Shown here: piece by piece, positions 5,603 to 57,749 of the stretch
Position numbering within the stretch: the stretch's first letter is position 1
Layout: each line of letters starts with the position of its first letter
NCBI GenBank assembly: GCA_044892525.1
Contig: CM097887.1
Location: 56,296,001-56,360,000, forward strand
Source: Schmidtea polychroa
Lineage: Eukaryota
Length of the DNA stretch: 64,000 nucleotides
Reading direction: 5' to 3'
Program-made: the position numbers and the translations under genes
The notes under the pieces: model-generated
Databases searched by the model: none
The model's input: the letters and a program-made list of their open reading frames with translations, nothing else
What the model was told of the DNA's origin: nothing

Positions 5603-5616
5603 TGGCGACCACGCCG
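5603..5616 (+). promoter_or_regulatory. PBS-like motif TGGCGACCACGCCG (tRNA-Arg-type, tentative)
   Basis: Identical 14-mer to the PBS at 27974-27987 ahead of the second Gypsy gag, but no gag follows here. Confidence 0.45.
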
Positions 5617-31240: not shown

Positions 31241-31264
31241 TTGAATTACAATTTCCAAACTCAG

Positions 31265-37800: not shown

Positions 37801-39281
37801 TTAGAATTATCGTTGGAGTTATATTGCGCCAGTAGGCCATGTCCATTGCACTTTTTTATATACATACTGCAACGCTTATGATTGTATGAAAATTACTTTC
37901 AATTATTTCATTTTCTAGTAGTCAGTACCCAAATCTGAATACAATATTGTTGGGGTTCTTAAATTTAAAATTTCCAAATAATTAAAAAAGGAATATAGAA
38001 ATTTCAAAATCAAGAAATCATCGAAATAAAATTTGAAAAACGGGTCAGGTGTAAATGAGATGATGGGAAAGATCATAGTGAGAATGGATTCATCAGAATA
38101 TGTTCAGAAAGAATCAAAATGGAAGAAAGCGTACAAAAACAGAACCTCATTAATTAATTAACTAATTGAGGTAAACCCAAGTTAAGTAAACAGAAAGAAT
38201 TGTAAACAAAGTGGAAAACCATTATCATGACAACATGTAATTGGATAACAAGAAAAAGGTTATCTCGCAAGAGAGACGCACGGTGGGCCAATTAATTATT
38301 TCTTTCGAAGGAGAAATGATGAAAAAAGCCGCGAGGCAAAGCTTGTTATAGGGAGACGATCTAGTTGAAACGCCATTAATCAATGCGATTATTTCAACTA
38401 CATAAAGGAGCTCAAACTCAGAAAAAATCGGCATTTTACCACAGGTAGGGACGTATAAATGAGGTTGGTTTTCAATGTACCATATTCGGTTTACACGAAA
38501 ATTGTTTATTCCATCTACCCTGAAAGTTATAATGTAATCATTGACATTCGAGTTTGATGAACCATTTTTATATTCTTTCAAGCTGATTAGTTCATCTTTA
38601 TGTGGACATACTATTGAGAAGCGAGATTACTACCTGAAATTAAATTAAACAATTAAATCAAACAAGTCTTCGTATATACTAACATGTCTCTCAACTCAAC
38701 CATTTCTAAATCAGGTATGATTTTTCCAATAAATACGGTATTAGAATTTGTTAGGACTTAAAAATTTGATCATTTTCCCATTTTATTGTCATATTAATAC
38801 CCGCTATCATTGCTTACAATTATACTAAATTGATGTGAGAATCATTTCCTTGTTAGGGCAATCACATAGAATTCTCAACACTGTGTCATTAATCCCCAAT
38901 CATACTCATATCCCAATACAGCAAGTGTCGTAGGAAATCTCTGCTGAACCACTTTAGTAGCTTGTTATCAGATAAGTTTTCTCAACCTCATGTTTTACCT
39001 GAGTAGGGAAATGTCAGCCTTGAAAATTAGAGGTTCAAACTAATGTGTTATAGTAGTAACTACTGATCTCTGAAATTCAATACCAGACCAATGGAAAGAC
39101 CCACATGTCCATCGGGTGTGGCAAGAAGAGGAACTAGACATGCATGATGTCTAGAGCCGTAAAGACGATATAGCACATCAAAAATAGAACCCATGATTTT
39201 TTGAGACTGTTACTATGATCTAAATTCTTAGCTAACTGGTTGTGTAATTTATCAATATTTTGATCGTTTAAAAATTACCTC

Positions 39282-40445
39282 TGTTGGATGATGAAGGTAG
39301 GCACATCACCACATTCAATCTCAACAAGTATTATAGGACTGGGCCCAGAAAATATAGAGTCAATGTGTGCGCTGAAGAGCGTAGGTAAATCAAATAGCTC
39401 AGCAGTCCAATTTCCCAACAATCCAATGCCTCAAACAATAGTAACAACCAACAATTCAATTCCTCAATTCAATTCCTCAAATGATAACAATAACTTTTGT
39501 GTGATAAATCGTATCAAACTTTATTAACATTGATCTGTGTTTTAACTATATTCATTTTTATTCGTGTATAAATTTTTAGTGTATTTTACTTTATTGACAT
39601 TATCAACACTCTGTGCTTTTAACTTTATTTATTTTTATTCATATTTGTATGTAAAATTTTGATTATATTTGATTGTAAATTTTATTGGTAAACACAAAAA
39701 ATAAATATATATATAANNNNNNNNNNNNNNNNNNNNNNNNNNNNNNNNNNNNNNNNNNNNNNNNNNNNNNNNNNNNNNNNNNNNNNNNNNNNNNNNNNNN
39801 NNNNNNNNNNNNNNNNNNNNNNNNNNNNNNNNNNNNNNNNNNNNNNNNNNNNNNNNNNNNNNNNNNNNNNNNNNNNNNNNNNNNNNNNNNNNNNNNNNNN
39901 NNNNNNNNNNNNNNNNNNNNNNNNNNNNNNNNNNNNNNNNNNNNNNNNNNTGGTAATAGTGGTGATAATAGTAATGGTAATAATAATGATAATTTAAGAA
40001 AGTATTAATTAATTAATATAAGTAATTAAAAATATTTGAAATTTAATATCAGTCTGACGAGACTGAAAGAATCTAAAAGAATCTAAAAATGAAATTTAAT
40101 TCAATATCAGTCTGACGAGACTGAATTAAATAACGTATGAAATTTAAAATAATTAATTTATGCAAAAATAATCTACTATTTTAGCGAAAAACTCTTATTC
40201 AAAGGTTAATCCTTAAAATAGCTCAATACCCGAATCAGAACAAAAAGATTCACATCTTGACTAAACATACTAAGGTACAGCACGCACTACACAACATATA
40301 ACAATACACATATATTTTTACAAGCATTTCAGAAGAAGAATTTGAGAAATAATTGTCAAAGCATTGCAAACTTTTATAGAATTGAAATTGCTTATATTTG
40401 GTAATTTTTGATTATAATAAATCTTTATACACATATTTGTTTTTG
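39282..40445 (+). repeat. 5' LTR (main part) of the large Gypsy element
   Basis: Nearly identical to 56228-57385: about 7 substitutions and a 37-bp deletion in the sequenced parts. The last 25 nt of the LTR reappear at 44449-44473 after the insertion and a gap. Confidence 0.85.
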
Positions 40446-40567
40446 CTGGGATATTGCCCGGTTGAATCCAACTATTTCGCTTTAGTCTAAGGGATGGGTG
40501 TCCATCCAGTTACGATAGAGATGACCGTGTCAACCCAGAGCAAAACCCCGCACAACCTACACTCCAA

Positions 40568-40705
40568 CATAGCACCCGTGAACCACTTCACGTTGGTAAT
40601 GTGCTATGCCGGCGAGACGCCAGTAAGCAGGTGAGCCCCTGCCTTAGGACTACTCCTTACTGAGGCCCCGACTTCCTTTCCCTGACGGCCGATGGAAGGA
40701 CTTAC
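40568..40705 (-). ncRNA. Conserved three-hairpin structured RNA, copy 2
   Basis: H1 CCTTCC/GGAAAGG. H2 CAGTAAG-GAGTAGTCCTAAGGCAGGGGCTC-ACCTG-CTTACTG. H3 CATAGCAC-ATTACCAA-CGTGAA/TTCACG-G-GTGCTATG. Confidence 0.75.
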
Positions 40706-40999
40706 GTCTGACCACATCCTCAAACCTCGGATTTCCTTGAATGGGATACAAATCGATCATTGCTTGTTGGACTTTGAAAACGTAACCCTATTCATAGAGT
40801 CTACACCGAGCTAATTGTCAGAATTACAATTAATAAAAGAAACAAGATTTTTAGTCAAAATGGATTTATTTTCACATCAATACAATACACAGAAAACTAT
40901 ATGCAGTATATACAATTTAATAGAAAACGGAGCACGAGATAGGTGGAGATATTCAGTTAGATAATTTTTATACAACAAGATTTTCCTACGGTGGGATTT

Positions 41000-41749
41000 T
41001 CATTTCTCCCATTCCGTGTCAGCTAGAAGTTCATCTAAATCGAAGAACTCGGAGGCGTTTTCCTCCCACGTTACACCGGCGGCGGAGATAATGCGCCCTG
41101 GGATCCCTACGGTTAGATCGACCACGGTGGGATTGCCGTTACGGTTGACTGGGGTGACGGTTGAGGGTGTGCTTTGTTTGACGACTGCCCGTTCTCGTTG
41201 TTTCCGTTTTCTTTCAGCCCGAGATAATTGTCGACGCTTGGGCTTAGAGGAGCTGTTAGTAGTAAGAGGCAGAGTAGAGGTGGAAGCGATGGATGGAATT
41301 GCTCTACTAGTGCCGGTAAAGATCAAGTCGGCTGGCTTGGGCGAGAGCTGAGTCTCTACACACCCTCGGCAAGACTTTTTAGGTGGAGGCGACGACTTTG
41401 AAGACGTGTCGTGGTGAGTTGGGAAGAGCTGGTCGGCTTCATTTATAGGGATCTTCACTATCTTCTTAGTGGTTGCTGCCTGTAAGTAAACTTTGTGCAG
41501 CGCCTCGGACTGCTCCTTTATCAGGCTTCTTTGGGCACGGCTTTCGGAGATCAAAGCGTCCCGACAATGTTCACTACGATAGAGCTTCTTCTGGGTCTCC
41601 TTCATCTGAGCGGGACTGAACCATGTCCCCTCTAGCTCGTCTATTTTCCTTTTGTATTTCCCAATTTGGGTCTGTAGGTCTTTGATTATTGCATTCTTGC
41701 CTGAACAAGAAAAGCAGGGTCTGAGAACGGTTTTTGAATTGGGTAACAT
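41000..41749 (-). CDS. Family X ORF A (249 aa)
   Basis: Intact homolog of 3135-3896. Both proteins end in a similar acidic-hydrophobic motif (FFDLDELLAD vs FPVDIDAMIAE). Confidence 0.75.
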   Translation of the reverse strand: MLPNSKTVLRPCFSCSGKNAIIKDLQTQIGKYKRKIDELEGTWFSPAQMKETQKKLYRSEHCRDALISESRAQRSLIKEQSEALHKVYLQAATTKKIVKIPINEADQLFPTHHDTSSKSSPPPKKSCRGCVETQLSPKPADLIFTGTSRAIPSIASTSTLPLTTNSSSKPKRRQLSRAERKRKQRERAVVKQSTPSTVTPVNRNGNPTVVDLTVGIPGRIISAAGVTWEENASEFFDLDELLADTEWEK

Positions 41750-42394
41750 ATCTGATGGCTATGAAGAAAAGATAGAACTAAATAAGATAAACCGAATTTA
41801 GGAAGTCCCCATCCCGATACAATTCATTATTAACTGTGTTCGATATTTCTACAGGAAGGACGGGGTTAGTTAGTAAGAGGAATTTCCCTACGCCATCGAT
41901 CTTTGTTCCCCCTGGGGTATTTATTTACAAGAAAACCAACCGGCAACATAAGACTTCGCCTAACGAAGGTAATGTATTATTATTAAAAATGACTATCACT
42001 TGTTTATGAGAAATTATTGGTAACAGAATTGTTCGTAAAAAGGATATATAGTATTGAAGAGCCCAAGTTAAAATATATGATTTATAAAAGGAAATTATTT
42101 ATTACTAAAATTTAGTAGATAAAATAGGTAAATCCATTTCAATTAATTATTAACTATAAATATTAAAATTTTTTGAACTTCCAATAATGCGGACTTGAAA
42201 CATTCAATCACCTACTGTCGATTACCTATGGCTAGTGTTGAATCTATTAATGACTAATGAGTTTATCTAGTAGTCGACAAACTAGGACACACCAGGCAAA
42301 CTGTCTCACGGAATTCGGTTGCGGTGAAATTACATACTGCTATCGATAAACTAGAAAACTCTAATGGATGTGACGTGTAGAAAGTTATTTTCGC

Positions 42395-42586
42395 ATGATT
42401 GCGCTTAATCATACTCGCACTACCGCTGCTGGGCATCCACATGTGGATCTTGTTACTATCACTTGCAATATGGGCGTTTGTGGGTATGTGCATGTGCTCA
42501 CATTCCATGGAAATGAAATCCGATTAGCATATTGGGCGGATTTTCAGATGCTACATCACACGGTGTTGGGTTGTCATCTCTCATGA
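42395..42586 (+). CDS. Family X small ORF B (63 aa)
   Basis: Homologous to 4588-4739 (GVxxYVxV...GxxIR). Confidence 0.45.
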   Translation: MIALNHTRTTAAGHPHVDLVTITCNMGVCGYVHVLTFHGNEIRLAYWADFQMLHHTVLGCHLS

Positions 42587-44475
42587 AAATTTGAAATAGA
42601 AAATTCTATCACATCCCTATGGTTGGATATAATTTGCTTCGTAAATGAACTGTTCAACTATTTCAAGACATATTTACCGATCTCAACTCGTGGATATCGA
42701 CCATCTCGGAATTTATGTAATTATGAATTTGCATGCACTGTCTCCTATTCAGGTATATCGAAATTCGTTTCTTTTTATATCATCAAATAAAAGGTATTTG
42801 TGTATTTTGTCTTGTTTTTTCGACGATATATTTCTGACAGCATTGTGTTCTATTGCATAGCTATTCTGCTGCCGAAATAAGGGTGCTAAACTAAATTCAT
42901 TAAGAAAATTGAGCGTAAGTGGTAATTTCGAGATGAGGAATGATCTACAGATAGATGATAATTACTCTACTAACGAAAATAACAGATCTAGACCTATGAT
43001 TGACTAAATTTTCATTTACGAGAAATCATAATTTGAAGAATTATTATGGATATGAAGACTTTAGATCCACTCAGTCACTGTGAATCACTGCTACTACCTT
43101 TGCTATAAATTAGATTTATTTCGCTCCTTCTTCCTAATTATTCTACATGCATTTTGAGTGACCTTCAGCGATTGGACCCGTGGAGAAGCCTTCACATTTC
43201 GGCCCAATCTAGCTGCGTGATTGAAGAACCTCATGTCCACCGGCTGAGCTCCCGAAGGCACCTCACACCATGACATGAAGTTCCTCAACTCCACGTTACT
43301 CGCATCGAATTTTAATATATATTATATTAACTCATAAAATTCTGAACTCATAAAATAAATCATAAAAATTACTGAAAGTTAGAATCATTTATTGTAAAGG
43401 TTTTCTAAAAATAAAATCATTCATCGATCTACATTACATTCATGCCTTCACTCATTTTAAAAAACTTTAAAGGAATCAGATGAAGAGAGTTAAACTAAAA
43501 CTTTAACTATGAATGTTTACCATTACTTTTAACTTTTAACTTTTCAAAAACTAAGTGGCAAAACAAATAAAAGCTCCTTACTATCGTGGCTGAATGTTGG
43601 GCTAAATCGAAATTTGATCTCCTTGAAATAGGTTGGCTTGAGTTCAGATGTTCCTTGAATGATTAGTACTACTGCTGCTGTATGAAATTCGGTTAGTTGT
43701 GATTGTTGTCGTTCTAGTTGTACCTGTGAAGTGCTTGGAATTAACGGTAAGTTTATGATTTTTGTGCTTGTTTATATATAATTTTTTTGATGTGTGCGGA
43801 CCAATCAAAATTGAGTACCGCTTGTTTCTGTTAATTTAATTTAGTTTTCTTGTTTTTTGCTTATTTTCTCTTATTTTCTTTTGTTTTTTCTTATATATTT
43901 TATTTATTTCTTTAATTTCCTTATTATTCATTAAATTTTCCTTACTTTATTCATTGTTCTATCGTCCTATTTTAATTTTTCTTATTTTTATTTTTTGTTT
44001 TAATTCTTGTTTTCTAATTCTTGTTTCTTTTATATTTTTTCCTATTTTATTCTTAATTTATTTATTTTATTTTTCTTTCCTTAACCTCTTGCTCATCTTA
44101 GTTTCCTAATATTTAACATTTTCATTTTTCGANNNNNNNNNNNNNNNNNNNNNNNNNNNNNNNNNNNNNNNNNNNNNNNNNNNNNNNNNNNNNNNNNNNN
44201 NNNNNNNNNNNNNNNNNNNNNNNNNNNNNNNNNNNNNNNNNNNNNNNNNNNNNNNNNNNNNNNNNNNNNNNNNNNNNNNNNNNNNNNNNNNNNNNNNNNN
44301 NNNNNNNNNNNNNNNNNNNNNNNNNNNNNNNNNNNNNNNNNNNNNNNNNNNNNNNNNNNNNNNNNNNNNNNNNNNNNNNNNNNNNNNNNNNNNNNNNNNN
44401 NNNNNNNNNNNNNNNNNNNNNNNNNNNNNNNNNNNNNNNNNNNNNNNNGTTCCCGAATATCGAGACCTCGACATT

Positions 44476-44493
44476 TGGTGCCGCGAACCGGGA
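44476..44493 (+). promoter_or_regulatory. Primer-binding site TGGTGCCGCGAACCGGGA
   Basis: Two nt after the LTR end (...CTCGACA). Complementary to a tRNA ending GGCACCA; from memory it is closest to metazoan tRNA-Phe, with tRNA-His as the alternative. Confidence 0.8.
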
Positions 44494-44715
44494 CTTTAAA
44501 ATCAATTATTGTTATTCACAATTTGGGGGATAGGAATTGAGATCAGAGGGTTATAGTATTTTATATTGGGAAAATATATTTATAATAATAAAATCATCAT
44601 TGATCAATTTTAAATAAATAAATTCAGTTTTTTTTATTTATCAAGCAACTCAAAAGATAAAATAGATAATCAACCCGAAATAATTTATAATTTAAGGAAT
44701 AGAATAGTCTATAGG

Positions 44716-46272
44716 ATGAACAATAATAATAACTTTATTAAAATTTTACCAGTAGAATCATATAGAGGAGAGCCCGAAAAGTTCGACGATTTTTTCACTG
44801 AGATCGCTCAGTATGCAGAAGCTTGTGGTTGGACACCTGATGAGTTAAAAATGAGAATCCCATTATATTTAAAAGGATATGCATTACAAGCATATAACAA
44901 TTTAGAGTGTAAAGGAAATAATTTTGATCAACTCGTAAGATATCTGAGAGCAGAAATAGTAATCGATAGTGATTTACAAAAGATAAATGTTCAAAAGTTT
45001 AGAAACAGATATCAAGGTACTAGAGAATCAGTTGGTGAATATGTATATACGATTACGGAGTTAGCGAAGAAGGCATTTGGTGCAGGCGAGCACACAGCAA
45101 AATTAATTGAGGATCAATTTTGGAACGGAATACAAAAATATTTATATAAAGCATTAATTATGGTAGAATATGGTAATTTAAATGAATTAGTTCATAAAGC
45201 TAAGCGTATAGAAGCAATACAACGAGATAGGTTTAGTTCGCATGTAGATGCAATGGAAATCCAAAAGCCCATAGAGGTAAAATCTGAGTTGGGTAAGTCA
45301 GATGACAACATCCCCTGGGAGGAGATGAAGCAACTATATTTGAACTTTGTAAAAAATAGACGAAGGGTAAGCCCGAGTCCGGATAGAAGTCAATCACCTG
45401 AAAACAGGAGGAGATTTGATAATGTGAGAAACAGAAATTTCGAGAGTAGAAACAATAGAAACACTTTGGATAGAGATAATCGATATGAATATAATAGAAA
45501 TAATTATACGAGAGATAATCGAGTCGAATTTAGTAGAAATAATTTGAGAAATAATAAATATGATAGAAGTAATAGATATGATAAGAGAGATAATACAAAT
45601 GATTTGAGACGTAGACAGACAAGTCCATATAGACAGAATTCATATAGAGAAAGGCGAGGAAGCCCTTATAACAATGATGGCAGAGATAAAGTAAATTTTA
45701 ATGGACAGATTAAATGTTATAATTGCCAAAAATATGGTCACTTAGCTAAAGTATGTAATAATGCGCGAAGCGAATCGCCTAATAAAGTGAGATTTCAAAA
45801 TGAGCCTGAGATAAAACAGATTAATAGTGCTAAGTTGATATCAGCTAATGATGAAATAAACAGTTTGAGAGAAGAATTAAAAGAATTTAAAACTCAATAT
45901 GGGAGACTTATTGAGAGAAAGTTAGAAATGTCATTAAATGAGTTTCAGTGTTTTACCAATGATGTAGATATAGATAATGATGAGTTTCGTGAAGCAAGAG
46001 AAGCGGATGAAAAATTTCTTGCAGAAGCAAATAGATGTAAAGAATTAAAAGAGGAATTGAAAGAGACATTAGAAAAATGGCCTTATGATGATAATGAGAC
46101 ATTACGTATAATAAATAGAGTTCAAGTCGAAGGAATTGACTTAGAATATTTGAGAAATTTGATACCAATAATGGTAAAGAGGCAAAATATGACTAGAGTA
46201 TTTGAATTAGAAATAGAATTGAAAGAAATGATAAAATGTTATGGTGAGTTTGTGAGAAAAAATCAGATTTGA
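44716..46272 (+). CDS. gag: Gag: capsid-like N-terminus, R/N-rich linker, CCHC zinc knuckle, extra helical C-terminus
   Basis: Retrotransposon gag pattern (YRGEP...GW...YLKGYA...RYQGTRESVGEY...FWNGI) and CYNCQKYGHLAKVC at 45715-45756. Confidence 0.9.
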   Translation: MNNNNNFIKILPVESYRGEPEKFDDFFTEIAQYAEACGWTPDELKMRIPLYLKGYALQAYNNLECKGNNFDQLVRYLRAEIVIDSDLQKINVQKFRNRYQGTRESVGEYVYTITELAKKAFGAGEHTAKLIEDQFWNGIQKYLYKALIMVEYGNLNELVHKAKRIEAIQRDRFSSHVDAMEIQKPIEVKSELGKSDDNIPWEEMKQLYLNFVKNRRRVSPSPDRSQSPENRRRFDNVRNRNFESRNNRNTLDRDNRYEYNRNNYTRDNRVEFSRNNLRNNKYDRSNRYDKRDNTNDLRRRQTSPYRQNSYRERRGSPYNNDGRDKVNFNGQIKCYNCQKYGHLAKVCNNARSESPNKVRFQNEPEIKQINSAKLISANDEINSLREELKEFKTQYGRLIERKLEMSLNEFQCFTNDVDIDNDEFREAREADEKFLAEANRCKELKEELKETLEKWPYDDNETLRIINRVQVEGIDLEYLRNLIPIMVKRQNMTRVFELEIELKEMIKCYGEFVRKNQI

Positions 46273-46512
46273 ATATAACTATTGAGGCAAAGGACCTTTT
46301 GAGAACACTTATGCGTAGTACAGGGGTACATGTGTGCACAAAAGTGAATAAAGTGAAACAGATGGCCAGAGGTAATTGGCCCGAAATATTGGGAGATAAC
46401 GATAAAGTGAAACTGTATTTCAACGGGGTAGAAATGATGAATAACGAATATATAATCGACTATGGGGTAAACGTTATCGATAACAATGTTATTTCTGCCG
46501 TAATAGAAAGGC
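46263..46512 (+). CDS. Ubiquitin-like domain
   Basis: TKVNKVKQMA...DKVKLYFNGVEMMNNEYIIDYGV...VISAVIE aligns by eye to ubiquitin TIENVKAKI...[23 protein letters not shown]...TLHLVLR. Confidence 0.6.
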
Positions 46513-46721
46513 AAGAAAGTAAGGAAATTGATACACCAACCCCATCAGTAGAATTGAGTATAAACGACGAAAATGACTATGACAAACTATTTAGATTGTG
46601 GGATGCTTCTTCAGGAGGGGCAACGAAGTCACCAACAGCTAGCGATGAAATCTTTAAACCTATTGACACAAAATAGGATAATTTACATGAGACAATAGAA
46701 AAAATTGCGACACAAGCAAAT

Positions 46722-47369
46722 ATGCAGGATGCAGAGACGATGAAACGAGGTAGAGGAAGGCCTCGAAAATCTGAAATAGCCGAAAAGTCAGATGACAGAA
46801 AGGCAGCAGAGCGTTTAAGAGATATTGCAAATAATATGAGACAAGAAGTTCCAAAAAATCAGGATAATGACAAAGATATACAAATGATAACGGAGTTAGT
46901 TAAAGCAATGAATGTGAGACGGTTTCCGGAAGCAAAACCATCAGCGTTAATAGAAAATATAGTTAAAAAGATTAAATTAATGGAAAAAGAGATTAGAGAA
47001 TCGAGTGCAGAGGAAGCGAATGAAGAGACAGTGTTAAAGATATTATTTACAACAGGAGTCAATCGGGATAAAGTGATTACGGCGATGGCATATTTAATAG
47101 CAAGATACAAAAAACTTTTGCGAATGAATCCAAAGAATCAAATAGAAAATATTGCTAAAATGATATATCATAAACTAAAGGTAGATGCTATGCCATGGAT
47201 AAAATTAAAGGGAGGATGGAAAATACTGTATGATGAGAGCCTAATTGAAAGTGCTAAGGAAAGCGTAGAAGATAATATTAATGTAGAAATAGATGATACG
47301 GAGGAGACAGTAAAAAACCTAGTAAATAAAACAACTATGAGACCAAGTCAAAAAGAAAGAAAGTCGACA
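46722..47369 (+). CDS. AT-hook plus Bcl-2-like domain
   Basis: AT-hook KRGRGRPRK; BH3-like RLRDIANNM; BH1-like ILFTTGVNRDKVIT; BH2 PWIKLKGGWK, in the correct order and spacing. Confidence 0.7.
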
Positions 47370-49230
47370 ATGTCAATAGTAATTATAGTAATAACGTTAT
47401 TGTTAGATCTGATAAAAGCAAATAATGCAATCATAGCGTATGACTGTTAGAATCCTAAGTGGGGACAGAAATATTCATTATTAGATGTAGAAAATTGCCC
47501 AGAGGCTAATCCAACAAAATTAATTGTTGCAGATCCAAAGATTTTTCACATATATCAAGAGTCTGACTTCATTCACACTGAAGCAGGAGAATGTATCGTT
47601 AAATATTCAGAGGAAAGTTTTGTGTGCAATAAAATAGCAAGAACAATATAAACTCCAACATGGGCACCAGAAGCGATAATAATAGCACCAATCGAATGTG
47701 AAAATGCATTTAAAACAAAAAAGATAAAAACGCCGGATGGATTTGAGTTAAATGCTCAGGTAGGAGCACGAGTAAGGCAATTAGTAAATGTCGTTGGATG
47801 GTCATCAACAGGAGGATATTGTGAAGGAGGAACGTATAAAATATGGGGGCATGTGGCAGACAATATTGTAGTGAGACGACAATATTATATTGAATTAAGG
47901 AAATTCAAGGCGTCATTTGATAGTTCATCAAAGAAAATGATGACACATAAGTTCTGCACATTAGATGAGACAAGCTGTGATACAGGCGAGTCAATGATCA
48001 TATACAAAGTAAACAAATACGAATGCCATCTAACTAAACTAAAGACACTGAAATTCAGAACGATACGAGGTAAACAGTTCACGGATGTAGAATCCAAGAA
48101 CATTAAAGACCAAAAACGACGTGCAACGATAATTCAAGAGAGATACACCAACGATATACATGTCAGATTCTGAAACTGAAGCGATGAGATTTGTGGGAAA
48201 AGGTGAAAGTATTAAATGTGGAAAAGCAGTCATACAAACAAATTATGAAGGAATTTATATCAGTGGAAGTAAAATTAAAGAGGCAAAATCGAAAATAGAC
48301 AAATTCGATGACAAGCTAGCGTCATATTTTAATAATAAAATCGACTATTTTTATCATCATCAGTTAGTACAATTGGACAAAGTATACCAAGCAACTATTG
48401 CGAACGATTGTAAACTCAATAGAGAAATATTAAGAACAAAGATGGCGGTTGCAGTCACAAACCCAGATTTAATGGCACCAATTTTATTTGCAGAGAAAGG
48501 GACATTTGCAAGAGTTGTCGCTGAAGTGATACAAACATTTCAGTGTAAAGCGGTTAGTGTATCTTTAGCAACGAATAATAAATGTACAAACGAAAAACCA
48601 GTAGTGTATAAAGGAGAAACTGTATATCTCCAACCAATAACAAGGATATTAACAGATAAAGACTATGTTCCGAGAAAAATTGATAAATGTACAAATCTAT
48701 TAGATCCGTTATACAAAATAAATGATGATATGTGGATTACAATGTCAGATAGAAAGGAAGGGACTAAACCACAAAAACTAGAATTAACTGAACTTGAGAA
48801 AAAGTTAGAATTTCAGGAAGTCAACGAAATGGATAACAATGGGATGTATACGAGAGAGGCGATAGAGAGCGCCAGAAAACATATGTTATTTCCTCATGAA
48901 AAAGAAAAAGTTCTTTCTATTATGGTAAACAAAATTATCGAGAATAGTTATGGAGGGAATTCCAACTTTGATGTATTATTATCAAAAGAGCACTTCAAGA
49001 AAGTTGTGTATAGAGTATTATACAGCATATGGGGATATTTTGCGATTCTCGGAAATACGTTTGCCACTATATTGGGTATATATTATACAGTAGCACTATT
49101 GAAAATGATTTGTTCATCATTAGTTTTGTTAAGACAACTGAGACAAGTTTTTGGTAATTCATATAAAATGATGGCATGTTTATGTCCATTCATAGCCAAA
49201 TATTTGATCACTGCGAAGCACGACAAAGAA
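47370..49230 (+). pseudogene. env: Envelope glycoprotein, class III (herpes gB / chuvirus G-like); two in-frame stops and one frameshift
   Basis: Signal peptide MSIVIIVITLLLDLIKANNA followed by IIAYDC, then GGYCEGGTY, DCKLNREIL, FQCKAV...CTNEKPVVYKGETVYLQPITRIL...C and a C-terminal TM hairpin. Stops at 47448 and 47649; frameshift at about 48140. Confidence 0.75.
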
Positions 49231-49479
49231 ATCAAACGGATGAAAAGTCGAAGGGAAGAGGGTGAAATAATGATCACCAATGAGAAAGATGACGAGGCAA
49301 ACAAATCAGAAAATATTGAGCAACCACATATTGGGTTATATGATAATCAAAGAGAACAATTGACAGAATTGAGAAATAATATTGAAATTAGAATCCCAAG
49401 TGAAAATGGTAATTGTCATTGTGTTCCAAGGAAAACTTATGGATGTTACGGGTTAGAACTTGACGATATATTAGAAGGG

Positions 49480-52400
49480 TTAAATGAAGCAAGGCCTAAA
49501 TTACAAATAGTGATAAATAATAAGATAATAAAGGCATTATGTGACACAGGAGCAGCAGCTTCTATGATTCGTGAAGATCAGTTAACCGAAAATCAAAAGA
49601 AAAATATCGTGAGCACAAGAGATAGAGTAATTTTATTATCATCACATAACATACCATTAAAAGGCGATATCGAATTAACAGTCCACTTTTCAGATCAAGT
49701 GGTTGAACATGTCTTCGAGGTAGTAGCAGAATGTAAATGCGGGTGTGTCCTTGAGATGGACATACTCAAAAAGTTAAAAAACTGTGTAATCGATCTAACG
49801 GATAGTACAGTTAAACGGAAAGCAATATATCAAGACGCAAGATTTACTGAGGTAATTGCATTAGAGACATTCGAACTAGATTATCAAAGTGATCATATAA
49901 TTCCAGTAAAAGTTAATGTTAAAAGTGAGGACACTTTCATTTTCGAGCCTGAAACGGCAATATCACGAAATCATAATGTAATGTTAACAGACGAGTGTGT
50001 AGTTCCAAATAATGGGATAATTCCAATAAGAATCGCGAATTACGAAAGGAATAAAGTAAAAATTCATAAAGGTACAAAATTGGGAAAGTTGTTCAAAGGT
50101 GAATTAGAGCAAACATTTGAAGTATGTGAGATGTCGATAACGAGTGATGTCGGTGAAGGAATGGTCGAACAGAGTAGAGCGAATAATATTAAATTTTATG
50201 ATAAAATTAAAATAAATAATAATTATCTAAACGAAACACAACAACTACAACTACAAATATTACTTGACGAATATAGTGATGTTTTTGCAAGACACGAATT
50301 TGATTTAGGAGATACTGATATTATTAAACATGTAATCGATACGGGGAATGCTAGACCAATAAAACAGAGACCCTATAGTGTACCATATAAAATGAGGGAG
50401 GAAATTAAACGACAAATTAAAGAATTAAAAGAGGCAGGCGTAATAAAACAAAGTTTTTCACAATGGGCATCACCTATTGTGCCAGTTAGAAAGAAAGACG
50501 GGGAAATTCGAATGTGCATTGATTATCGTAAATTAAATGATGTAACAGTAAAAGATTCTTACCCATTCCCGAGAGCACAAGAACAATATGATAAACTTAG
50601 GGATACTAAGTATTTCACAGTAATAGATGCAAATAAAGGTTACATGCAAATTCAAATGGAAGAGGGGGATGCGGAAAAAACTGCTTTTGTAATTGAGGAT
50701 GGTTTATATGAATATACAAGACTACCGTTTGGGTTAACTAATGCGCCAGCAACATTTCAACGTTTAATGAATACAGTATTAGTAGATGTACAGCATTGCG
50801 CAGTATATATGGATGACATATTAAAATCGTCAAAAACATTCGAGGAACACTTAAAAGACATAGCAAATGTATTACAAAGATTGAGAAAAGCGAGAATTAA
50901 AATAAAACCCACTAAATGTAAATGGGCAGAACCTTCAGCATTATTTTTAAGACATATAGTCACAGTAGATGGTATAATACCTAACCCCGATAAAATTGAA
51001 GTAGTTAAAAAATTTCCAGTTCCAAAAACATTACAACAAGTACAGGGGTTTTTAGGTCTCACAGGATATTATCGTAAATTCATACAAGATTATGCAAAAA
51101 TAGCAGCACCACTAATTGAATTAACAAAAGGAGTCAAAACAAAGGGAGAGAGTAAGAGAGTGTTAATAGTACAGGAGATTAACGATAAAATTAACAAGCC
51201 ACAAAAGAAATGGAAAGATGAACATCAAAAAGCTTTTGATCAACTAGAAGAAAAATTAATAACAGCACCGATACTAAGATACCCAGACTTTAAAAAACAG
51301 TTTATTGTCATGACAGACGCCAGCCGGAAGGCTGTAGGGGCAGTCTTAGGACAAGAAGAGGAAAAGGGTAAAGATTATGTAATAGCTTATGCAAGCAAAA
51401 CATTAAAAGGAGCACAGATTAGGTACTCAACAATCGAGAAAGAATGTTATGCTATAGTTTTTGCATTAAAACAATTTAAACCATACATATATGGAACTGA
51501 AGGAGTAATTAGAACAGACCATAAACCATTAGAAGGGTTATGGAAACATAAAGATACATCCAGCAGACTGTTAAAATGGGCAATGAAAATACAAGACATG
51601 CACGTAAAGATTGTATACAAACCAGGCAGAATAAACAGGAATGCAGATGCATTATCACGAATTCCAGAGTTGGGAGCACTAGAAGTTTTTGCATTAGTAA
51701 CTGAAAAACCAATAGAAATATATGAGGAACAAATGAAAGACCCAGAACTCTTCAAAATAAGAGAGGAAATAAAAAAGGGAACTAACCAAAAGTATAAAAT
51801 CTGTAAGAAGTTAATTGTTATTGAGGATTTTAGCGGTAAACAATTAATAGTAGTACCACAAAGATTAAGACAAATTCTTCTAATACAGTATCACGATGGT
51901 GCTCTAGGAGGTCATTTATCAAGTAGGAAAACAGCAAGCAGATTGATGCAAAAATATTACTGGGACGATTTGAAAAAGGATGTTAAGAGATGGTGTAATG
52001 CATGCACAATATGCGCAACTAGAAAAAATACAGGAACAAAGACTAAAGCACCTTTACATCCAATCCCAGCTACAACATCACCAATGGAACTGTGCGCAAT
52101 GGATTTTTTGTGTAAACTACCCACAACAATTAATGGGAATAAGCACATACTAGTTTTTAGCGATTATTTTACCAAATGGGCAGATGCATTTCCCACTAAA
52201 GATGAAACAGCAGAAACAGTAGCCAAATTACTTGTAGAAAAAATAATCTTTAAAATCGGTACACCGAGGAAATTATTAACAGATAAAGGGAAAAACTTCA
52301 TGAGTGAAACTATAAAAAGAGTAGCTAACATATTTAACATGCATAAAATCAACACAACAGCATACCACCCTCAAACTGATGGTTTAGTGGAAAGATTCAA

Positions 52401-52956
52401 TGGGACATTTCTAAGTAGATTAGCCGTGTTTGTGGGAAAAAACCAAAATGATTGGGATGAATACGTTAATCAATGCACATATATTCATAATATCACACCA
52501 AATGAGACAACGGGATATTCACCATATTTTTTAATGTTCTTAAGAGAGCCTGCGACACCGATTGATACAATTTTTGAGCCTCGAGTATCACAATATTTAG
52601 ATGCACCAGATTATGTAACATTAATGCAAGAGAGATTTCAAGAGGTATATAAGATCTCAAATTTAAAAGTTAAATTTAGACAAGAACAGTATAAGGCAGA
52701 TTACGATAAAAATAGCAAACCTCATAATTTTAAAGTGGGAGATAAGGTTAGACTTATGTCTCCACAAGTAGGTAAAGGCAAAACAACTAAATTAGCAAGA
52801 CCATTTAAAGGACCATACGAGATAGTAAAAGTAGTACATGAAAACCTGCATTTACAAAAACATAAAAATGAGGATTCGATAATAGTACATGCTAATAGAT
52901 GCAAATTAGCAGAAACAGAGTTAGTAGAAAAACCACCTCACAAATATGGATTATGA
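49480..52956 (+). CDS. pol: Pol (PR, dUTPase-like linker, RT, RNase H, integrase), in frame with the env C-terminus in ORF 48160-52956
   Basis: ALCDTGA; RMCIDYRKLN, PFGLTNAP and YMDD (50806-50817); TDAS/EKE/TDH/ADALSR; HHCC and D-D35-E (MDF, TDKG, GLVERFN). Confidence 0.95.
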   Translation, partial: LNEARPKLQIVINNKIIKALCDTGAAASMIREDQLTENQKKNIVSTRDRVILLSSHNIPLKGDIELTVHFSDQVVEHVFEVVAECKCGCVLEMDILKKLKNCVIDLTDSTVKRKAIYQDARFTEVIALETFELDYQSDHIIPVKVNVKSEDTFIFEPETAISRNHNVMLTDECVVPNNGIIPIRIANYERNKVKIHKGTKLGKLFKGELEQTFEVCEMSITSDVGEGMVEQSRANNIKFYDKIKINNNYLNETQQLQLQILLDEYSDVFARHEFDLGDTDIIKHVIDTGNARPIKQRPYSVPYKMREEIKRQIKELKEAGVIKQSFSQWASPIVPVRKKDGEIRMCIDYRKLNDVTVKDSYPFPRAQEQYDKLRDTKYFTVIDANKGYMQIQMEEGDAEKTAFVIEDGLYEYTRLPFGLTNAPATFQRLMNTVLVDVQHCAVYMDDILKSSKTFEEHLKDIANVLQRLRKARIKIKPTKCKWAEPSALFLRHIVTVDGIIPNPDKIEVVKKFPVPKTLQQVQGFLGLTGYYRKFIQDYAKIAAPLIELTKGVKTKGESKRVLIVQEINDKINKPQKKWKDEHQKAFDQLEEKLITAPILRYPDFKKQFIVMTDASRKAVGAVLGQEEEKGKDYVIAYASKTLKGAQIRYSTIEKECYAIVFALKQFKPYIYGTEGVIRTDHKPLEGLWKHKDTSSRLLKWAMKIQDMHVKIVYKPGRINRNADALSRIPELGALEVFALVTEKPIEIYEEQMKDPELFKIREEIKKGTNQKYKICKKLIVIEDFSGKQLIVVPQRLRQILLIQYHDGALGGHLSSRKTASRLMQKYYWDDLKKDVKRWCNACTICATRKNTGTKTKAPLHPIPATTSPMELCAMDFLCKLPTTINGNKHILVFSDYFTKWADAFPTKDETAETVAKLLVEKIIFKIGTPRKLLTDKGKNFMSETIKRVANIFNMHKINTTAYHPQTDGLVERFNGTFLSRLAVFVGKNQNDWDEYVNQCTYIHNITPNETTGYSPYFLMFLREPATPIDTIFEPRVSQYLDAPDYVTLMQERFQEVYKISNLKVKFRQEQYKADYDKNSKPHNFKVGDKVRLMSPQVGKGKTTKLARPFKGPYEIVKVVHENLHLQKHKNEDSIIVHANRCKLAETELVEKPPHKYGL

Positions 52957-52971
52957 TCACAAAAAGCACTG

Positions 52972-53802
52972 ATGATGGCAGCGACATTTTTAACAATTAT
53001 AGGGTTGTGTAGATCAACTGAAGTAGAAAATGAGAACATACACTCAGTAGAATACATGGCTGAAGATATTTTAATCAACGTTTCACCGGATAAGATTAAA
53101 GCATATAACTTAAATAAATCACCAATAAGAGACTTGTATCTGGAAACTAGGGACAATATACCCAAACTTATGAAAAAAATTGAAAATAGATCAACTAATG
53201 AATTTGAAAGAGGAGATAATGTTGAATTCAGAGATCTACAACCCAACACTAATTACACACTTTGTGCACAATGGAACACATTAGTTGACACATCACAGAT
53301 AAGGTGCAAAAGGATAAAAACTACTAAAATAAACAGACTTAGAATAAAAAAACCAATAGGGAAAAAGATATCAACAACCAGAAAAACAACTACTGTAGAT
53401 TCAATATCCACACATCCTATATCACAAACAATAACGAATATATATAGGAAAACGACATTTAAAACGGTTAGACAAATATATAAAAAATTAATAATGAAAA
53501 ATCCAAGACAGTCTGATAAGAAACTGATAAAATTACCTACAGGAAAACCGATAGTTATAAATAACTGGAATGAATTACAAGTCTTTCAAAAGAAAGAAAG
53601 TAAACCACAATGGCCTTTTTATGTAATAGCTACAAGTGTAGTATCATTCGCGATTTTAGCAATTGTCACTAGTGTACAAGTTTATAAAAAGTACAAGAGG
53701 AAAAGGCAGCAGTATCGGCACCGACTGGTCAAAGAAGCACCAGGGCATTTTCACTTAGACAAATATATCCCTGGACAATATACTCTGTCCACACTTGTAT
53801 AA
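52972..53802 (+). CDS. Type I membrane protein with an FN3-like segment, in the same frame as pol
   Basis: Signal-like MMAATFLTIIGLCRS, FN3-like VEFRDLQPNTNYTLCAQ, a Thr/Lys-rich stalk, TM WPFYVIATSVVSFAILAIVTSVQVY, then KKYKRKR. Confidence 0.6.
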   Translation: MMAATFLTIIGLCRSTEVENENIHSVEYMAEDILINVSPDKIKAYNLNKSPIRDLYLETRDNIPKLMKKIENRSTNEFERGDNVEFRDLQPNTNYTLCAQWNTLVDTSQIRCKRIKTTKINRLRIKKPIGKKISTTRKTTTVDSISTHPISQTITNIYRKTTFKTVRQIYKKLIMKNPRQSDKKLIKLPTGKPIVINNWNELQVFQKKESKPQWPFYVIATSVVSFAILAIVTSVQVYKKYKRKRQQYRHRLVKEAPGHFHLDKYIPGQYTLSTLV

Positions 53803-54082
53803 TAACTTAAAAAATTTTAATTACGTAAATTGGTCAATGATATATAATAAAAGTATATATATTAATATTTATATAACTGCGTATAAGGTTAAACCTCAAA
53901 TGCGCAACAAGCATAAATATTTATTGTTTGTTTTTAGAATAATAATAAGAAACCTAGTCAGTCAATCGAATCAACCTAATCAAATCGATCTTCCAATAAA
54001 CCAAAGTCAATTCAGTCAATCGAATCAACCCAATAAAAACAATCATCATTCCTACCAAATCAATCTTCAAACAAACAAATCA

Positions 54083-54791
54083 ATGCACCCACATACGTCA
54101 GTTTACATGTATTCTCAAAGAACCAAAGCCCAGCGCAATCCAGAAACTCACAAAATAAAGAAATACGTACCGATGATACATAAACACTACAATAGTTTTT
54201 ATAAAAATCTACAAAATAAGATCAGCACAGACGGCACTCCCATTACTATCAGAAGCTTCCCTAACCAAGTCTGCATTCCAAATGACATGAAAATTGAAAT
54301 CGAAGAAAGGGAACTCCATCTCATCAAATTTAATGAAGCCCGAAGAGTAAAACTCAAAGACCTCATTGGAACATTTGATCAGTTTCCAAATGCAGAAGAA
54401 GCAGTAAGGGAAGGAAAAAAGGTACCACACAGATTACTGTTTCACATCACCAAGACAGAAGTATCAATCTGTCAAGATAGGACACCTTTAATTACCACCA
54501 GCAATTGCACAATAATGTTTAAAACAGTCAAAAACGATCGGAGCGTACCAAATGAATACAATCAACTAATAGTGCAGATGAATAACCTACCATGCGTAAT
54601 CGCAATCGAAATATTGTACATTCCTACCATCCCAAATCCTTTCAGAGAATTAGAAATCATCAAATATACAATTCAAATCCCAAGAGATGCAATTAACAGG
54701 AGAATATCATTCACCCATCAAGACCTATCAATAACAGAACGACATCAGCGTCTCATGTTCGTGGAGGCAAGGCTGATAATGGATATTAACA
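54083..54791 (+). CDS. Element-borne ORF of unknown function; runs into a gap
   Basis: Open frame of more than 230 codons with element-like codon usage. No motif recognised. The track start at 53795 crosses low-complexity AT-rich sequence. Confidence 0.5.
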
Positions 54792-55151
54792 NNNNNNNNN
54801 NNNNNNNNNNNNNNNNNNNNNNNNNNNNNNNNNNNNNNNNNNNNNNNNNNNNNNNNNNNNNNNNNNNNNNNNNNNNNNNNNNNNNNNNNNNNNNNNNNNN
54901 NNNNNNNNNNNNNNNNNNNNNNNNNNNNNNNNNNNNNNNNNNNNNNNNNNNNNNNNNNNNNNNNNNNNNNNNNNNNNNNNNNNNNNNNNNNNNNNNNNNN
55001 NNNNNNNNNNNNNNNNNNNNNNNNNNNNNNNNNNNNNNNNNNNNNNNNNNNNNNNNNNNNNNNNNNNNNNNNNNNNNNNNNNNNNNNNNNNNNNNNNNNN
55101 NNNNNNNNNNNNNNNNNNNNNNNNNNNNNNNNNNNNNNNNNNNNNNNNNTA

Positions 55152-55580
55152 GTATACGACAAGAAAATCACACCTTGGACAAAAGTACTGCACTATTACC
55201 CTGAAAAAACGGAATCCAATAAAGAAAATATCATTGGTAATGAGGACGAATATCATGCACTCATCGAGATTCAAAAATTATTATGCGGGAAAATAATAGT
55301 GGGATATGAAATCATAGATAAATTAAAAGCCCTAACCTTGTATCTAGACAATGTGATGGGGGTAAAAGAAATGGCAAATGATGCATTCTTGACATCATTT
55401 GTAAAGAACGTAGCTCCTCACAAAATCAAGCTGTCAAACCTGGCCTACCAAGTTATCAAACACCACAAAAGGTGGTACAAAGACAAGGCGATAAACGCAA
55501 ATATTGAAAAGACCTGAACCCATCTCGGCGAGACACACAACAGCGATCCTGAAAGTCATCTATGACATAGTCGAAACACA
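55152..55580 (+). pseudogene. REXO4/ISG20-like DEDDh exonuclease domain, catalytically degenerate
   Basis: VYDKKITPWTKVLHY...IQKLLCGKIIVGYEIIDKLKAL...KLSNLAYQVI, then after a frame change IYDIVETQWE. This parallels REXO4 VYDKYVKP...AEMLKGRILVGHALHNDLKVL...SLRLLSEKIL...LYVMVKKEWE as I recall it. Confidence 0.6.
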
Positions 55581-56334
55581 GTGGGAAGAAGTAGTAAAAT
55601 GGAATGTAGCATCAGAATACCCACTGTCAGGAAGTACAGCAGCAGAAAATCCACAATCAACAGAGACAAGAGAAGATGATCTGTTCATGGAAGAGGAGGA
55701 CATGTATATCGAACCCTCGCAATTCGAGCTAAAATATCGCAGAGATGGAACTCGAAGAACTTTCGAAAATGAGTTAGAAGATAGCGACGATGACCTCATA
55801 TTCATCTCAGAAGAAAGGAGACAGGAACCTGTGCAAACAGTTAAACTCGAACCACGGGAACCACAAAGTCAATCAATGATAACAGAATGCGATTTAGACT
55901 CAGACGAACAGTACTTCTCACTAGAAGAACAAAACAGTGGAGAAGAAGAAGATGCAATGAGTGTCGATGAATCGGAAGAAGAACTGGGGCCTGAACCAGA
56001 TATAAACATAGAGGAGCCTCATTTTATAATAGAAAAAGAAAAGCAACAGATCACAGAAAAGGAATTGACTCGTCATTTCGGGAGACGAATAAACGAGGGC
56101 GATATCCTAAACATAGCATTGGGCAAAGGGTTCAACCGAACAAAAATGCTCATCCAGGATTGCGAGATAGAAATAGTAAAAAGTATTAGAGATAATGCGG
56201 ACATTATCTTAACGGCCCAGGGAGGAATGTTGGATGATGAAGGTAGGCACATCACCACATTCAATCTCAACAAGTATTATAGGACTGGGCCCAGAAAATA
56301 TAGAGTCAATGTGTGCGCTGAAGAGCGTAGGTAA
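55504..56334 (+). CDS. Acidic ORF with an unknown C-terminal domain, ending inside the 3' LTR
   Basis: 276-aa track ORF with D/E-rich tracts. It crosses the PPT and terminates 107 nt into the LTR. Confidence 0.55.
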   Translation: MKRPEPISARHTTAILKVIYDIVETQWEEVVKWNVASEYPLSGSTAAENPQSTETREDDLFMEEEDMYIEPSQFELKYRRDGTRRTFENELEDSDDDLIFISEERRQEPVQTVKLEPREPQSQSMITECDLDSDEQYFSLEEQNSGEEEDAMSVDESEEELGPEPDINIEEPHFIIEKEKQQITEKELTRHFGRRINEGDILNIALGKGFNRTKMLIQDCEIEIVKSIRDNADIILTAQGGMLDDEGRHITTFNLNKYYRTGPRKYRVNVCAEERR

Positions 56335-57456
56335 ATCAAATAGCTCAGCAGTCCAATTTCCCAACAATCCAATGCCTCAAACAATAGTAACAACCAACAA
56401 TTCAATTCCTCAATTCAATTCCTCAAATGATAACAATAACTTTTGTGTGATAAATCGTATCAAACTTTATTAACATTGATCTGTGTTTTAACTATATTCA
56501 TTTTTATTCGTGTATAAATTTTTAGTGTATTTTACTTTATTGACATTATCAACACTCTGTGCTTTTAACTTTATTTATTTTTATTCATATTTGTATGTAA
56601 AATTTTGATTATATTTGATTGTAAATTTTATTGGTAAACACAAAAAATAAATATATATATATAANNNNNNNNNNNNNNNNNNNNNNNNNNNNNNNNNNNN
56701 NNNNNNNNNNNNNNNNNNNNNNNNNNNNNNNNNNNNNNNNNNNNNNNNNNNNNNNNNNNNNNNNNNNNNNNNNNNNNNNNNNNNNNNNNNNNNNNNNNNN
56801 NNNNNNNNNNNNNNNNNNNNNNNNNNNNNNNNNNNNNNNNNNNNNNNNNNNNNNNNTGGTAATAGTGGTGATAATAGTAATGGTAATAATAATGATAATT
56901 TAAGAAAGTATTAATTAATTAATATAAGTAATTAAAAATATTTGAAATTTAATGTCAGTCTGACGAGACTGAAAGAATCTAAAAGAATCTAAAAATGAAA
57001 TTTAATTCAATATCAGTCTGACGAGACTGAATTAAATAACGTATGAAATTTAAAATAATTAATTTATGCAAAAATAATCTACTATATAAACGACTCACAA
57101 AGTCAGTGTAGTGGCCCAAAATTTTAGCGAAAAACTCTTATTCAAAGGTTAATCCTTAGAATAACTCAATACCCGAATCAGAACAAAAAGATTCACATCT
57201 TGACTAAACATACTAAGGTACAGCACGCACTACACAACATAAAACAATACACATATATTTTTACAAGCATTTCAGAAGAAGAATTTGAGAAATAATTGTC
57301 AAAGCATTGCAAAGTCTTATAGACTTGAAATTGCTTATATTTGGTAATTTTTGATTATAATAAATCTTTATACACATATTTGTTTTGTTTTGATATATAT
57401 ATATATATATATAGGAACCAGTAAGTTGAGTGTTCCCGAATATCGAGACCTCAACA
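56228..57456 (+). repeat. 3' LTR of the large Gypsy element
   Basis: TGTTGGA start directly after the PPT and ...CTCAACA end. TATATAAA at 57083, TCAGT at 57103 and AATAAA at about 57359. Confidence 0.85.
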
Positions 57457-57749
57457 CCTAATAAATTCCTGTAAAGTGTGATTCCTATCTGATATTCCGT
57501 CTATATTTGTATATGTCTATGTCTATGTGTATATGTACGTGTATGTGTGTAATATCAAATGTGATTGCCAGGACTCAATGTGTTATACGATTGTAAAATT
57601 AATTGAGGTGGGTAATGTGAAACGATTCAAAAAATACAAATTAATTAAAAATAAATAAATAATTTAGTAGCTATGTGGGAAAACCTAGCTAATGGAAAAT
57701 CCAGGATGTCTCAAAATCAAGGAATAATTACATAAAAAAATTTAAAAAT

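Follow-up and report, generated by a model that had tools for sequence, protein, structure and literature searches.

What kind of retroelement occupies the centre of a stretch of planarian DNA in which a sequence-only reading had seen a giant enveloped Gypsy element with a virus-like set of accessory genes? The window, by which we mean the whole 64,000-nucleotide stretch analysed (Schmidtea polychroa, NCBI GenBank assembly GCA_044892525.1, contig CM097887.1, positions 56,296,001 to 56,360,000 of the forward strand), contains a long terminal repeat (LTR) retroelement with outer limits at window positions 39282 and 57456, a total span of 18.2 kb. We regard it as probably a decayed member of a young Burro-clade Gypsy family, about 14 kb long in native form, in which a first open reading frame (ORF1) encodes in one piece a polyprotein that likely supplies the parts of an enveloped particle, while a second one (ORF2), likely expressed from a spliced RNA, is predicted to encode an RNA-binding protein that does not cut. 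Observed directly are the LTRs, a primer-binding site (PBS) for tRNA-Phe, a polypurine tract (PPT), a 4-bp target-site duplication (TSD), a frame of about 3,050 codons in sister copies, the order of the domains, purifying selection and recent spread.

The paired LTRs begin at 39282 and 56228 and are identical at 920 of 927 aligned unmasked bases, apart from one 37-nt indel. The first 434 bases of the pair are free of mismatches, and six of the seven mismatches fall within the 266 bases adjoining the indel (40178-40443 versus 57121-57386), a clustering more suggestive of template switching or of gene conversion than of age. The PBS (44476-44493) is complementary at 18 of 18 positions to the 3' end of the genome's own tRNA-Phe(GAA) plus CCA; the tRNA-Phe genes of this genome form tandem arrays with a period of about 255 bp. 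The TSD of the window copy is imperfect (CCTC and CCTA, three of four bases), and a perfect 4-bp TSD was found in at least 10 of the 20 sister copies examined. The region between the LTRs (44474-56227) measures 11.75 kb, in agreement with the earlier description of LTRs, PBS and PPT enclosing about 11.7 kb of coding sequence. With TG...CA LTRs, a tRNA PBS, a PPT, a short TSD and the order protease (PR), reverse transcriptase (RT), RNase H (RH) and integrase (IN) of the GPY/F type, the element belongs to Ty3/Gypsy (Metaviridae). The term "giant" proved inflated. The span reaches 18.2 kb because the 5' LTR is interrupted, from 40444, by a nested solo LTR of about 3.75 kb; the true LTRs are about 1.05-1.2 kb long, those of sister copies measure 1.05-1.15 kb, with 1.45 kb reached in the copy that diverges most, and the native element is about 14 kb in size. 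A first reading as a 5.2-kb 5' LTR with a deleted 3' LTR was ruled out by the sister copies.

The genome (781 Mb, four large contigs) was searched for other members of the family. The Bcl-2 segment of the element gave at least 150 genomic matches, 11 of the 150 lying in stop-free frames of 3,050 or more codons. Twenty sister copies were fetched, with a selection biased toward long frames. Eight of them have a stop-free frame of at least 3,050 codons and all 20 have the same domain order; in 17, the region from gag through the membrane protein is collinear with the window in one or two blocks at 93% identity or more, and the remaining three are divergent subfamilies (69-82% identity) with the order unchanged. 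In one sister frame, Pfam recognised Gag, Bcl-2, Env, PR, RT, RH and IN, followed by the second membrane protein at the end. The recurrence of one order in 20 of 20 copies, together with the single open frames, indicates that the assembly is not chimeric and that the product is one polyprotein. The sequence-only reading, which had inferred one or two very long polyproteins and had proposed rebuilding the element from other genomic copies, was thus right about the length, but the number is one. LTR pairs were recovered in 17 of the 20 copies, 15 of them at 99.5% identity or more: the family is young and has recently spread. The window copy itself is decayed and cannot encode the polyprotein. 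Stop codons interrupt one frame at 46674 (TAG), 47448 (TAG) and 47649 (TAA) and the frame 48133-53802 at 52954 (TGA), exactly as had been listed, and the frame changes near 46260, 48150 and 55500.

The window copy is also mosaic in structure: as far as about 53950 it resembles one subfamily (94-97% identity), and from there on another (95-97%). Between subfamilies, the membrane protein, ORF2 and the LTR are exchanged as 3' modules, with the switch falling around the ORF1-ORF2 spacer (window 53050-54250); those concerned have gag-pol in common at 93-95% and differ by 20-30% in LTR and ORF2. A second locus on the same contig (near 8.09-8.11 Mb, 48 Mb distant) is 99.9-100% identical to the window copy and has its stop codons, a portion of its nested LTR and, on the 3' side, 6.7 kb of its flanking DNA. 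It is a segmental duplication or an uncollapsed haplotype and not independent support. Two other arrangements were observed. Two copies stand in tandem with one common LTR, 12,563 bp apart, and in a multi-copy deletion derivative without env and pol, a single frame of as many as 1,673 codons runs from Gag through the ubiquitin-like domain (UBL) and Bcl-2 into ORF2; at least three similar matches stand beside the example copy. The latter is possibly a non-autonomous element retaining only the capsid and host-interaction cargo.

We then considered the composition of the polyprotein, whose order is Gag, SUMO-like domain, Bcl-2-like domain, class III Env, PR, RT, RH, IN and second membrane protein (Table 1). 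A Pfam scan of the window gave, in order, a CCHC knuckle, Rad60-SLD, Bcl-2, Monjiviricetes fusion glycoprotein, protease, RT, RNase H and integrase. The domain calls of the sequence-only reading held to different degrees: Env and the exonuclease fold are strong, Bcl-2 is moderate, UBL is weak, and FN3 reduces to an Ig/FN3-like sandwich. For Env, the Monjiviricetes_fusion profile matched with E=1.7e-67 in the window and E=4.9e-89 in a sister copy, where positions 4-636 of 653 are covered. The UBL match (Rad60-SLD, E=0.006) lies under the Pfam cut-off; E values of 1 or less were obtained in all five aligned members, and alignment with PDB sequences gave no useful match. The conserved spacer between PR and RT (dN/dS 0.08) had no Pfam dUTPase match in the window or the sister copy. 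Between subfamilies, dN/dS was 0.03-0.14 for Gag, Bcl-2, Env and Pol and 0.03-0.30 for all ORF1 parts (UBL 0.25, Bcl-2 0.11, Env 0.03-0.07, RT 0.06), values that are rough because dS was mostly near or above 1 (0.46-2.1). They indicate that every part of ORF1 is under purifying selection.

The RT-RH tree, akin to the RT-RH-IN phylogeny put forward along with the sequence-only reading, was built by FastTree from 130 of 131 rows, one being dropped for coverage. The family falls in a 21-row clade (99 SH-like) with three Burro1-type copies and six Env-bearing polyproteins. The Burro1-type element of this genome contains MATH, Env, Pol, ankyrin, TRAF and BIR-RING parts, which is the set of domains published for Burro1, and is larger than the window element; it is 30-44% identical to the window family in Env and 46-47% in RT-RH. 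In the Burro1-type stretches examined, tblastn detected neither ORF2 nor the second membrane protein. The six polyproteins come from other data sets and have the same Env ahead of the protease, five of them with RT-RH-IN and one also with Bcl-2. Some related Env-bearing polyproteins (n=4) carry two aspartic-protease domains.

The modules had been described as anti-apoptotic, ubiquitin-pathway and nuclease functions. These are labels of folds: BH1 reads NRDK, the UBL lacks a diglycine at its end and the DEDDh set is incomplete. In the case of the Bcl-2-like domain, the Pfam match (E=1e-6) is slightly below the curated cut-off, and an alignment with Bcl-xL covers BH1-BH2 (E=0.002). The domain could be a true BH3-binding apoptosis inhibitor benefiting the host, like the Burro1 IAP, and we hold this possible, although somewhat doubtful. 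Besides the alignment of BH1/BH2 with Bcl-xL, the C-terminal membrane anchor and the dN/dS of 0.11 are in its favour, as is the Burro1 IAP (BIR-RING) protein, reported, in a second-hand account in the portion of PMC13465017 consulted, to protect stem cells. However, the window element has no BIR-RING ORF, and the BH1 motif NWGR is altered to NRDK or NGDR in all five aligned copies, with W-G-R replaced and BH2 retained. The Gly and Arg of BH1 are required for BH3 binding in Bcl-xL. The label "anti-apoptotic" is thus unproven because the groove motif is altered.

The second membrane protein, at the C-terminal end of ORF1, had no Pfam and no PDB sequence match. Its structure model (pLDDT 80.6) gave best Z scores of 7.2 with an adaptin ear and 7.0 with a cytokine-receptor FN3 domain, and the Atlas assigned FN3 to it at 0.90, with 148 shared features; the modelled beta sandwich is best called FN3-like, not proven FN3. 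Its dN/dS between subfamilies is 0.19-0.30. A hydropathy scan of the polyprotein revealed three strong segments at the expected places and a fourth was read from the alignment. These hydrophobic segments give a self-consistent arrangement, and we propose that four membrane segments would alternate the topology as the polyprotein threads through the membrane of the endoplasmic reticulum (ER), placing Gag-UBL-Bcl-2 in the cytosol, Env in the lumen, PR-RT-RH-IN in the cytosol, the beta sandwich in the lumen and the tail in the cytosol. The individual parts of an enveloped particle would be set free by signal peptidase and by the protease of the element, and in this particle the second membrane protein would serve attachment, as partner to the fusogen. 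The Env signal peptide would keep the Bcl-2-like domain anchored in the membrane, and this domain likely acts as a protein-binding modulator.

Alternatively, the element may never leave the cell, its Env and second membrane protein serving to anchor assembly on ER or other membranes, with no infectious particle released. The scanned Env region has neither sequons nor a furin motif, a multi-copy derivative without env and pol exists, and the sections of PMC6431247 and PMC13524379 consulted mention no extracellular stage. We nevertheless regard this alternative as unlikely, since Env is as constrained as RT (dN/dS 0.03-0.07 versus 0.06) along the entire fusion-protein profile, a pattern compatible with a functional fusogen.

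The new part of the element appears to be its 3' cargo, namely ORF2 and the second membrane protein. Pfam gave no match in any ORF2 piece, from the window or the sister copy. The Atlas and a PDB profile search (ISG20L2, E=4.7e-5) indicate an ISG20-type exonuclease, and a model of ORF2 obtained from a 42-row alignment (pLDDT 90.7, pTM 0.88) has two domains. Residues 221-400 matched ISG20 with a Z score of 17.7 and a root-mean-square deviation of 2.6 over 161 aligned residues, at about 20% identity, and residues 22-182 matched a prolyl-4-hydroxylase-type jelly roll (Z 11.2, deviation 3.5, 152 aligned). The jelly roll gave Z scores of 9-11 with prolyl hydroxylases and AlkB homologues, which are double-stranded beta helices; cupins were also matched. 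In the ISG20-like domain, the ExoI Glu, the ExoII acid and the ExoIII His are replaced in all five subfamily representatives, so that the DEDDh catalytic set is incomplete and "nuclease" is here the name of a fold. The jelly roll shows no aligned HxD/E across the 42 rows, and none whatever in four of the five own rows. In the six of 20 pairs where dS was unsaturated, dN/dS was 0.06-0.29, indicating that ORF2 is under purifying selection despite incomplete active sites.

A full hidden Markov model search of 1.84 billion proteins returned 96 relatives of ORF2, as compared with one from a word-indexed search. Many homologues outside the family keep the catalytic set, and 20 chosen as intact have D, E, H and D in common. 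At four metagenome loci, which carry one data-set prefix and are not independent, an ORF2 relative adjoins TRAF-like ORFs (two of four) or lies upstream of a Gag 28% identical to that of the window (one of four). No ORF2 relative was found in viral contigs, where none of 57 pattern matches was confirmed.

As to its expression, ORF2 is preceded by a candidate splice acceptor conserved in all subfamilies compared. Four contig sets only presumed to be RNA showed no joint at this acceptor on a sister copy, which is no evidence either way. ORF2 could instead be a frameshift or read-through extension of the polyprotein, an explanation to which we give as little credit as to the intracellular one. 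In subfamilies A and B, its frame (777 and 722 codons, respectively) is already open within the end of ORF1 and remains so across the AT-rich spacer; it is also open over most of this spacer in the window copy, and in three copies of another subfamily it is joined in frame with the upstream ORF1 sequence. Yet the spacer of the most divergent copy is filled with stops in all frames, and the T-rich tract with TTAG is kept in five of five subfamilies. Finally, it is extremely improbable that the arrangement arose from chimeric assembly or from insertions stacked within one another: the span does contain N-runs and one real nested solo LTR, and a near-identical locus lies on the same contig, but the order is that of all 20 copies, where it comes with single open frames, LTR pairs and TSDs, and of six polyproteins of other data sets, which refutes the idea for the internal region.

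We thus prefer the reading of a Burro-clade element encoding an enveloped particle, whose ORF2 protein, likely made from spliced RNA, would bind the element RNA, and shield or escort it, without cutting it. Several points weigh against it. Particle, cleavage, topology, splicing and RNA binding are all predicted from sequence. The Env region of one sister copy contains no N-glycosylation sequon and no R-x-K/R-R furin site, which would be unusual for a luminal viral glycoprotein. From a single frame, equal quantities of Gag, Env and Pol would result, and a route to excess Gag was not found. ORF2 may not need splicing, because three copies of one subfamily join its frame to that of ORF1. The UBL match does not reach the Pfam cut-off, and the Z score behind the FN3 call is under 8, with the adaptin ear tied for first. 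The RT-RH tree is by FastTree only and without named reference clades, and Burro1 was recognised by the set of domains that it contains and not by comparing its sequence to that of the published element. A broader scheme, which we judge improbable as a whole, would make the Burro clade a group of true enveloped flatworm viruses with a two-protein entry machine, in which a class III fusogen would be paired with an Ig-like attachment protein released from the same polyprotein, and with a clade-wide jelly-roll/ISG20-like protein, an active nuclease in some lineages and here a dead RNA-binding decoy that would shield the element RNA against host decay or piRNA processing. If true, ORF2 would be a retroelement-encoded silencing antagonist built from an antiviral nuclease fold.

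Table 1. Features of the element in window coordinates.
Feature	Position	Strand	Remarks
Left target-site bases CCTC	39278..39281	.	Right side 57457-57460 is CCTA, 3/4 match
5' LTR, first part, TGTTG start	39282..40443	+	LTR alignment with 3' LTR
Solo LTR of a different family, ~3.75 kb	40444..44132	.	Foreign to the element; far end under N, 44132 is the last visible matched base
252-codon ORF within nested LTR	41000..41758	-	70-85% amino acid conservation in relatives; no Pfam family
5' LTR, 3' end	44449..44473	+	Terminates GACA; 3' LTR counterpart AACA
PBS, tRNA-Phe(GAA)	44476..44493	+	18/18
Gag, one CCHC knuckle at 45709-45756	44716..46272	+	Polyprotein frame lost near 46250-46270 in window copy
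SUMO/ubiquitin-like domain, without C-terminal diglycine	46269..46520	+	Weak Pfam; stop 46674 downstream in window copy
Weak AT-hook	46743-46772	+	E=0.06; just 5' of Bcl-2-like domain
Bcl-2-like domain	46800..47230	+	BH2 retained, BH1 NWGR changed to NRDK
Hydrophobic segment	47370..47429	+	Putative dual role: Bcl-2-like tail anchor and Env signal peptide
Class III (gB/chuvirus-type) fusion glycoprotein	47430..49150	+	Transmembrane segment near 49069; stops 47448, 47649, frame change near 48130-48170
Aspartic protease, DTG at 49543	49486..49788	+	Pfam
Conserved PR-RT spacer	49843..50100	+	Sits where Burro dUTPase-like domain is reported; putative identity, from position
RT (YMDD at 50806) and RNase H	50485..51597	+	Pfam
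Integrase (HHCC, core, GPY)	51853..52930	+	Pfam; stop 52954 in window copy
Second predicted type I membrane protein, polyprotein end	52957..53802	+	Hydropathy, alignment, structure model
Ig/FN3-like beta sandwich	~53040-53325	+	Within second membrane protein, after signal-like segment
Transmembrane segment of second membrane protein	~53611-53685	+	Thr-rich stalk before; basic tail with Y-x-x-hydrophobic motif after
Candidate splice acceptor, T-rich tract and TTAG	53931..53937	+	Present in 5/5 subfamilies; predicted only
ORF2	54083..56334	+	C-terminus crosses PPT into LTR; ~310 extra bases (under N) and frame changes in window copy
Cupin/2OG-oxygenase-type jelly roll	~54150-54635	+	ORF2 N-domain
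ISG20-like exonuclease fold, catalytic set incomplete	~54750-55600	+	ORF2; acidic region beyond
PPT	56219..56227	+	Directly before 3' LTR
3' LTR, 1,229 bp, TGTTG...CAACA	56228..57456	+	LTR alignment

The DNA that interrupts the 5' LTR from 40444 onward is a separate dispersed repeat with 66 matches in the genome. Its relatives have TG...CA ends over 3.7-3.9 kb, and 4-bp TSDs were found in the four relatives with both ends clean; together with the antisense ORF, these features identify it as a solo LTR of another family. Members of this family (3.7-3.9 kb) carry a conserved antisense ORF of 250-275 codons without a Pfam match, and a related copy lies at window ~2595-6583, with its ORF at 3138-3896 on the minus strand. 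A short N-terminal motif of the antisense ORF matches weakly (E~1e-4) inside the LTRs of Burro1-type elements, and a decayed region elsewhere in the genome contains several such ORFs, an RT and a weak Env match. The family may represent the LTR of another giant Env-bearing family. A search for its parent gave only two matches to the LTR end plus TGG, and no matching gag-pol in eight downstream stretches. In the flanking DNA, judging from translations, we take 12141-12638 (minus strand) and 62707-63096 (plus strand) to be exons of phosphoribosyl-pyrophosphate synthetase and of a C2H2-finger endosomal protein; 10013-10501 (plus strand), 27837-31247 and 3-1099 are presumably a non-LTR-type RT fragment, Gypsy pieces and a transposase-like fragment.

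How does this element compare with known ones? Its cargo had been thought foreign to any described metavirus and more typical of large DNA viruses. Nothing connecting it to large DNA viruses came to light: its Env family is that of the Monjiviricetes (negative-strand RNA virus) fusion protein. Moreover, the order has been published: in the sections consulted of Arkhipova and Yushenova 2019 (PMC6431247), planarian Burro/GYPSM1 polyproteins contain Gag, Ubi2/SUMO-like PF11976, BCL2, Env and Pol, the Env being mononegavirus-like and placed in frame after gag and before pol, and PR being separated from RT by a dUTPase-like domain. The headline claim therefore adds little, because the layout was already known. 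Like Burro/GYPSM1, the window element has one polyprotein with Gag, SUMO-like PF11976, BCL2, mononegavirus-type Env and a PR-RT spacer, as well as 3' accessory ORFs; its SUMO-like and BCL2-like matches before Env are both below Pfam cut-offs and follow the published order. Unlike these giant elements (Jurka 2007, Grohme 2018, as described in the same sections of PMC6431247), which exceed 30 kb and have 4,873 codons, it measures about 14 kb, with 1.1-kb LTRs and about 3,050 codons, and its family has one zinc knuckle and lacks in polyprotein and ORF2 the MATH, ankyrin, TRAF and BIR-RING parts of Burro1/GYPSM1. It is most likely a compact member of the Burro clade and may correspond to Burro-2, -3 or -4. 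Such a compact and recently active relative would be far simpler than 30-kb elements for studying how capsid, envelope and enzymes arise from one polyprotein, and the Bcl-2-like domain is the obvious next cargo to test, given that the Burro1 IAP is reported to aid regeneration.

GAG-ENV-POL elements are described in flatworms, nematodes and bryozoans in the text consulted of Chary and Hayashi 2026 (PMC13524379), among them Smed_errantivirus_3, an HSV/gB-type GAG-ENV-POL errantivirus of Schmidtea mediterranea with three intact copies and no PBS listed. A stretch of its Env, the only part compared, is identical to that of the window at 99 of 114 residues, counted by eye; in the table of that paper, the five remaining Smed entries reach 31-38% identity with the Smed_errantivirus_3 Env. 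The window element has the same gag-env-pol order and represents, on this partial comparison, a different subfamily of the Smed_errantivirus_3 family, in a broken copy. A word search of the main text of PMC13524379, in the form consulted, gave no exonuclease, fibronectin, ubiquitin, accessory or apoptosis. Neither a jelly-roll/dead-ISG20 ORF2 nor the second membrane protein was found described in the literature searched, although Grohme 2018, Lee et al. 2026 or their supplements may cover the 3' cargo.

ORF2 would be of interest in its own right, as a two-domain family that elsewhere accompanies elements bearing Gag and TRAF and in which an intact nuclease has become a dead one, and as a candidate antagonist of RNA defence in an animal whose stem cells rely on control by piRNAs. 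Its closest parallel among retroelements is provided by the rotifer LTR retrotransposons Juno and Vesta, which carry DEDD-type exonuclease ORF3s according to the sections consulted of Rodriguez et al. 2017 (PMC5408684). In both cases a Gypsy element carries at its 3' end an ORF for a DnaQ-like exonuclease, but the ORF3s are of the DEDDy/RNase D type with catalytic residues kept, whereas ORF2 is of the DEDDh/ISG20 type with residues lost and a jelly roll fused to it. Maelstrom and EXD1 are named in the same sections as inactive DEDD-fold RNA binders. Like these two and Exuperantia, which was also among the fold matches, ORF2 keeps the fold without the catalytic residues, with the difference that it is encoded by a retroelement.

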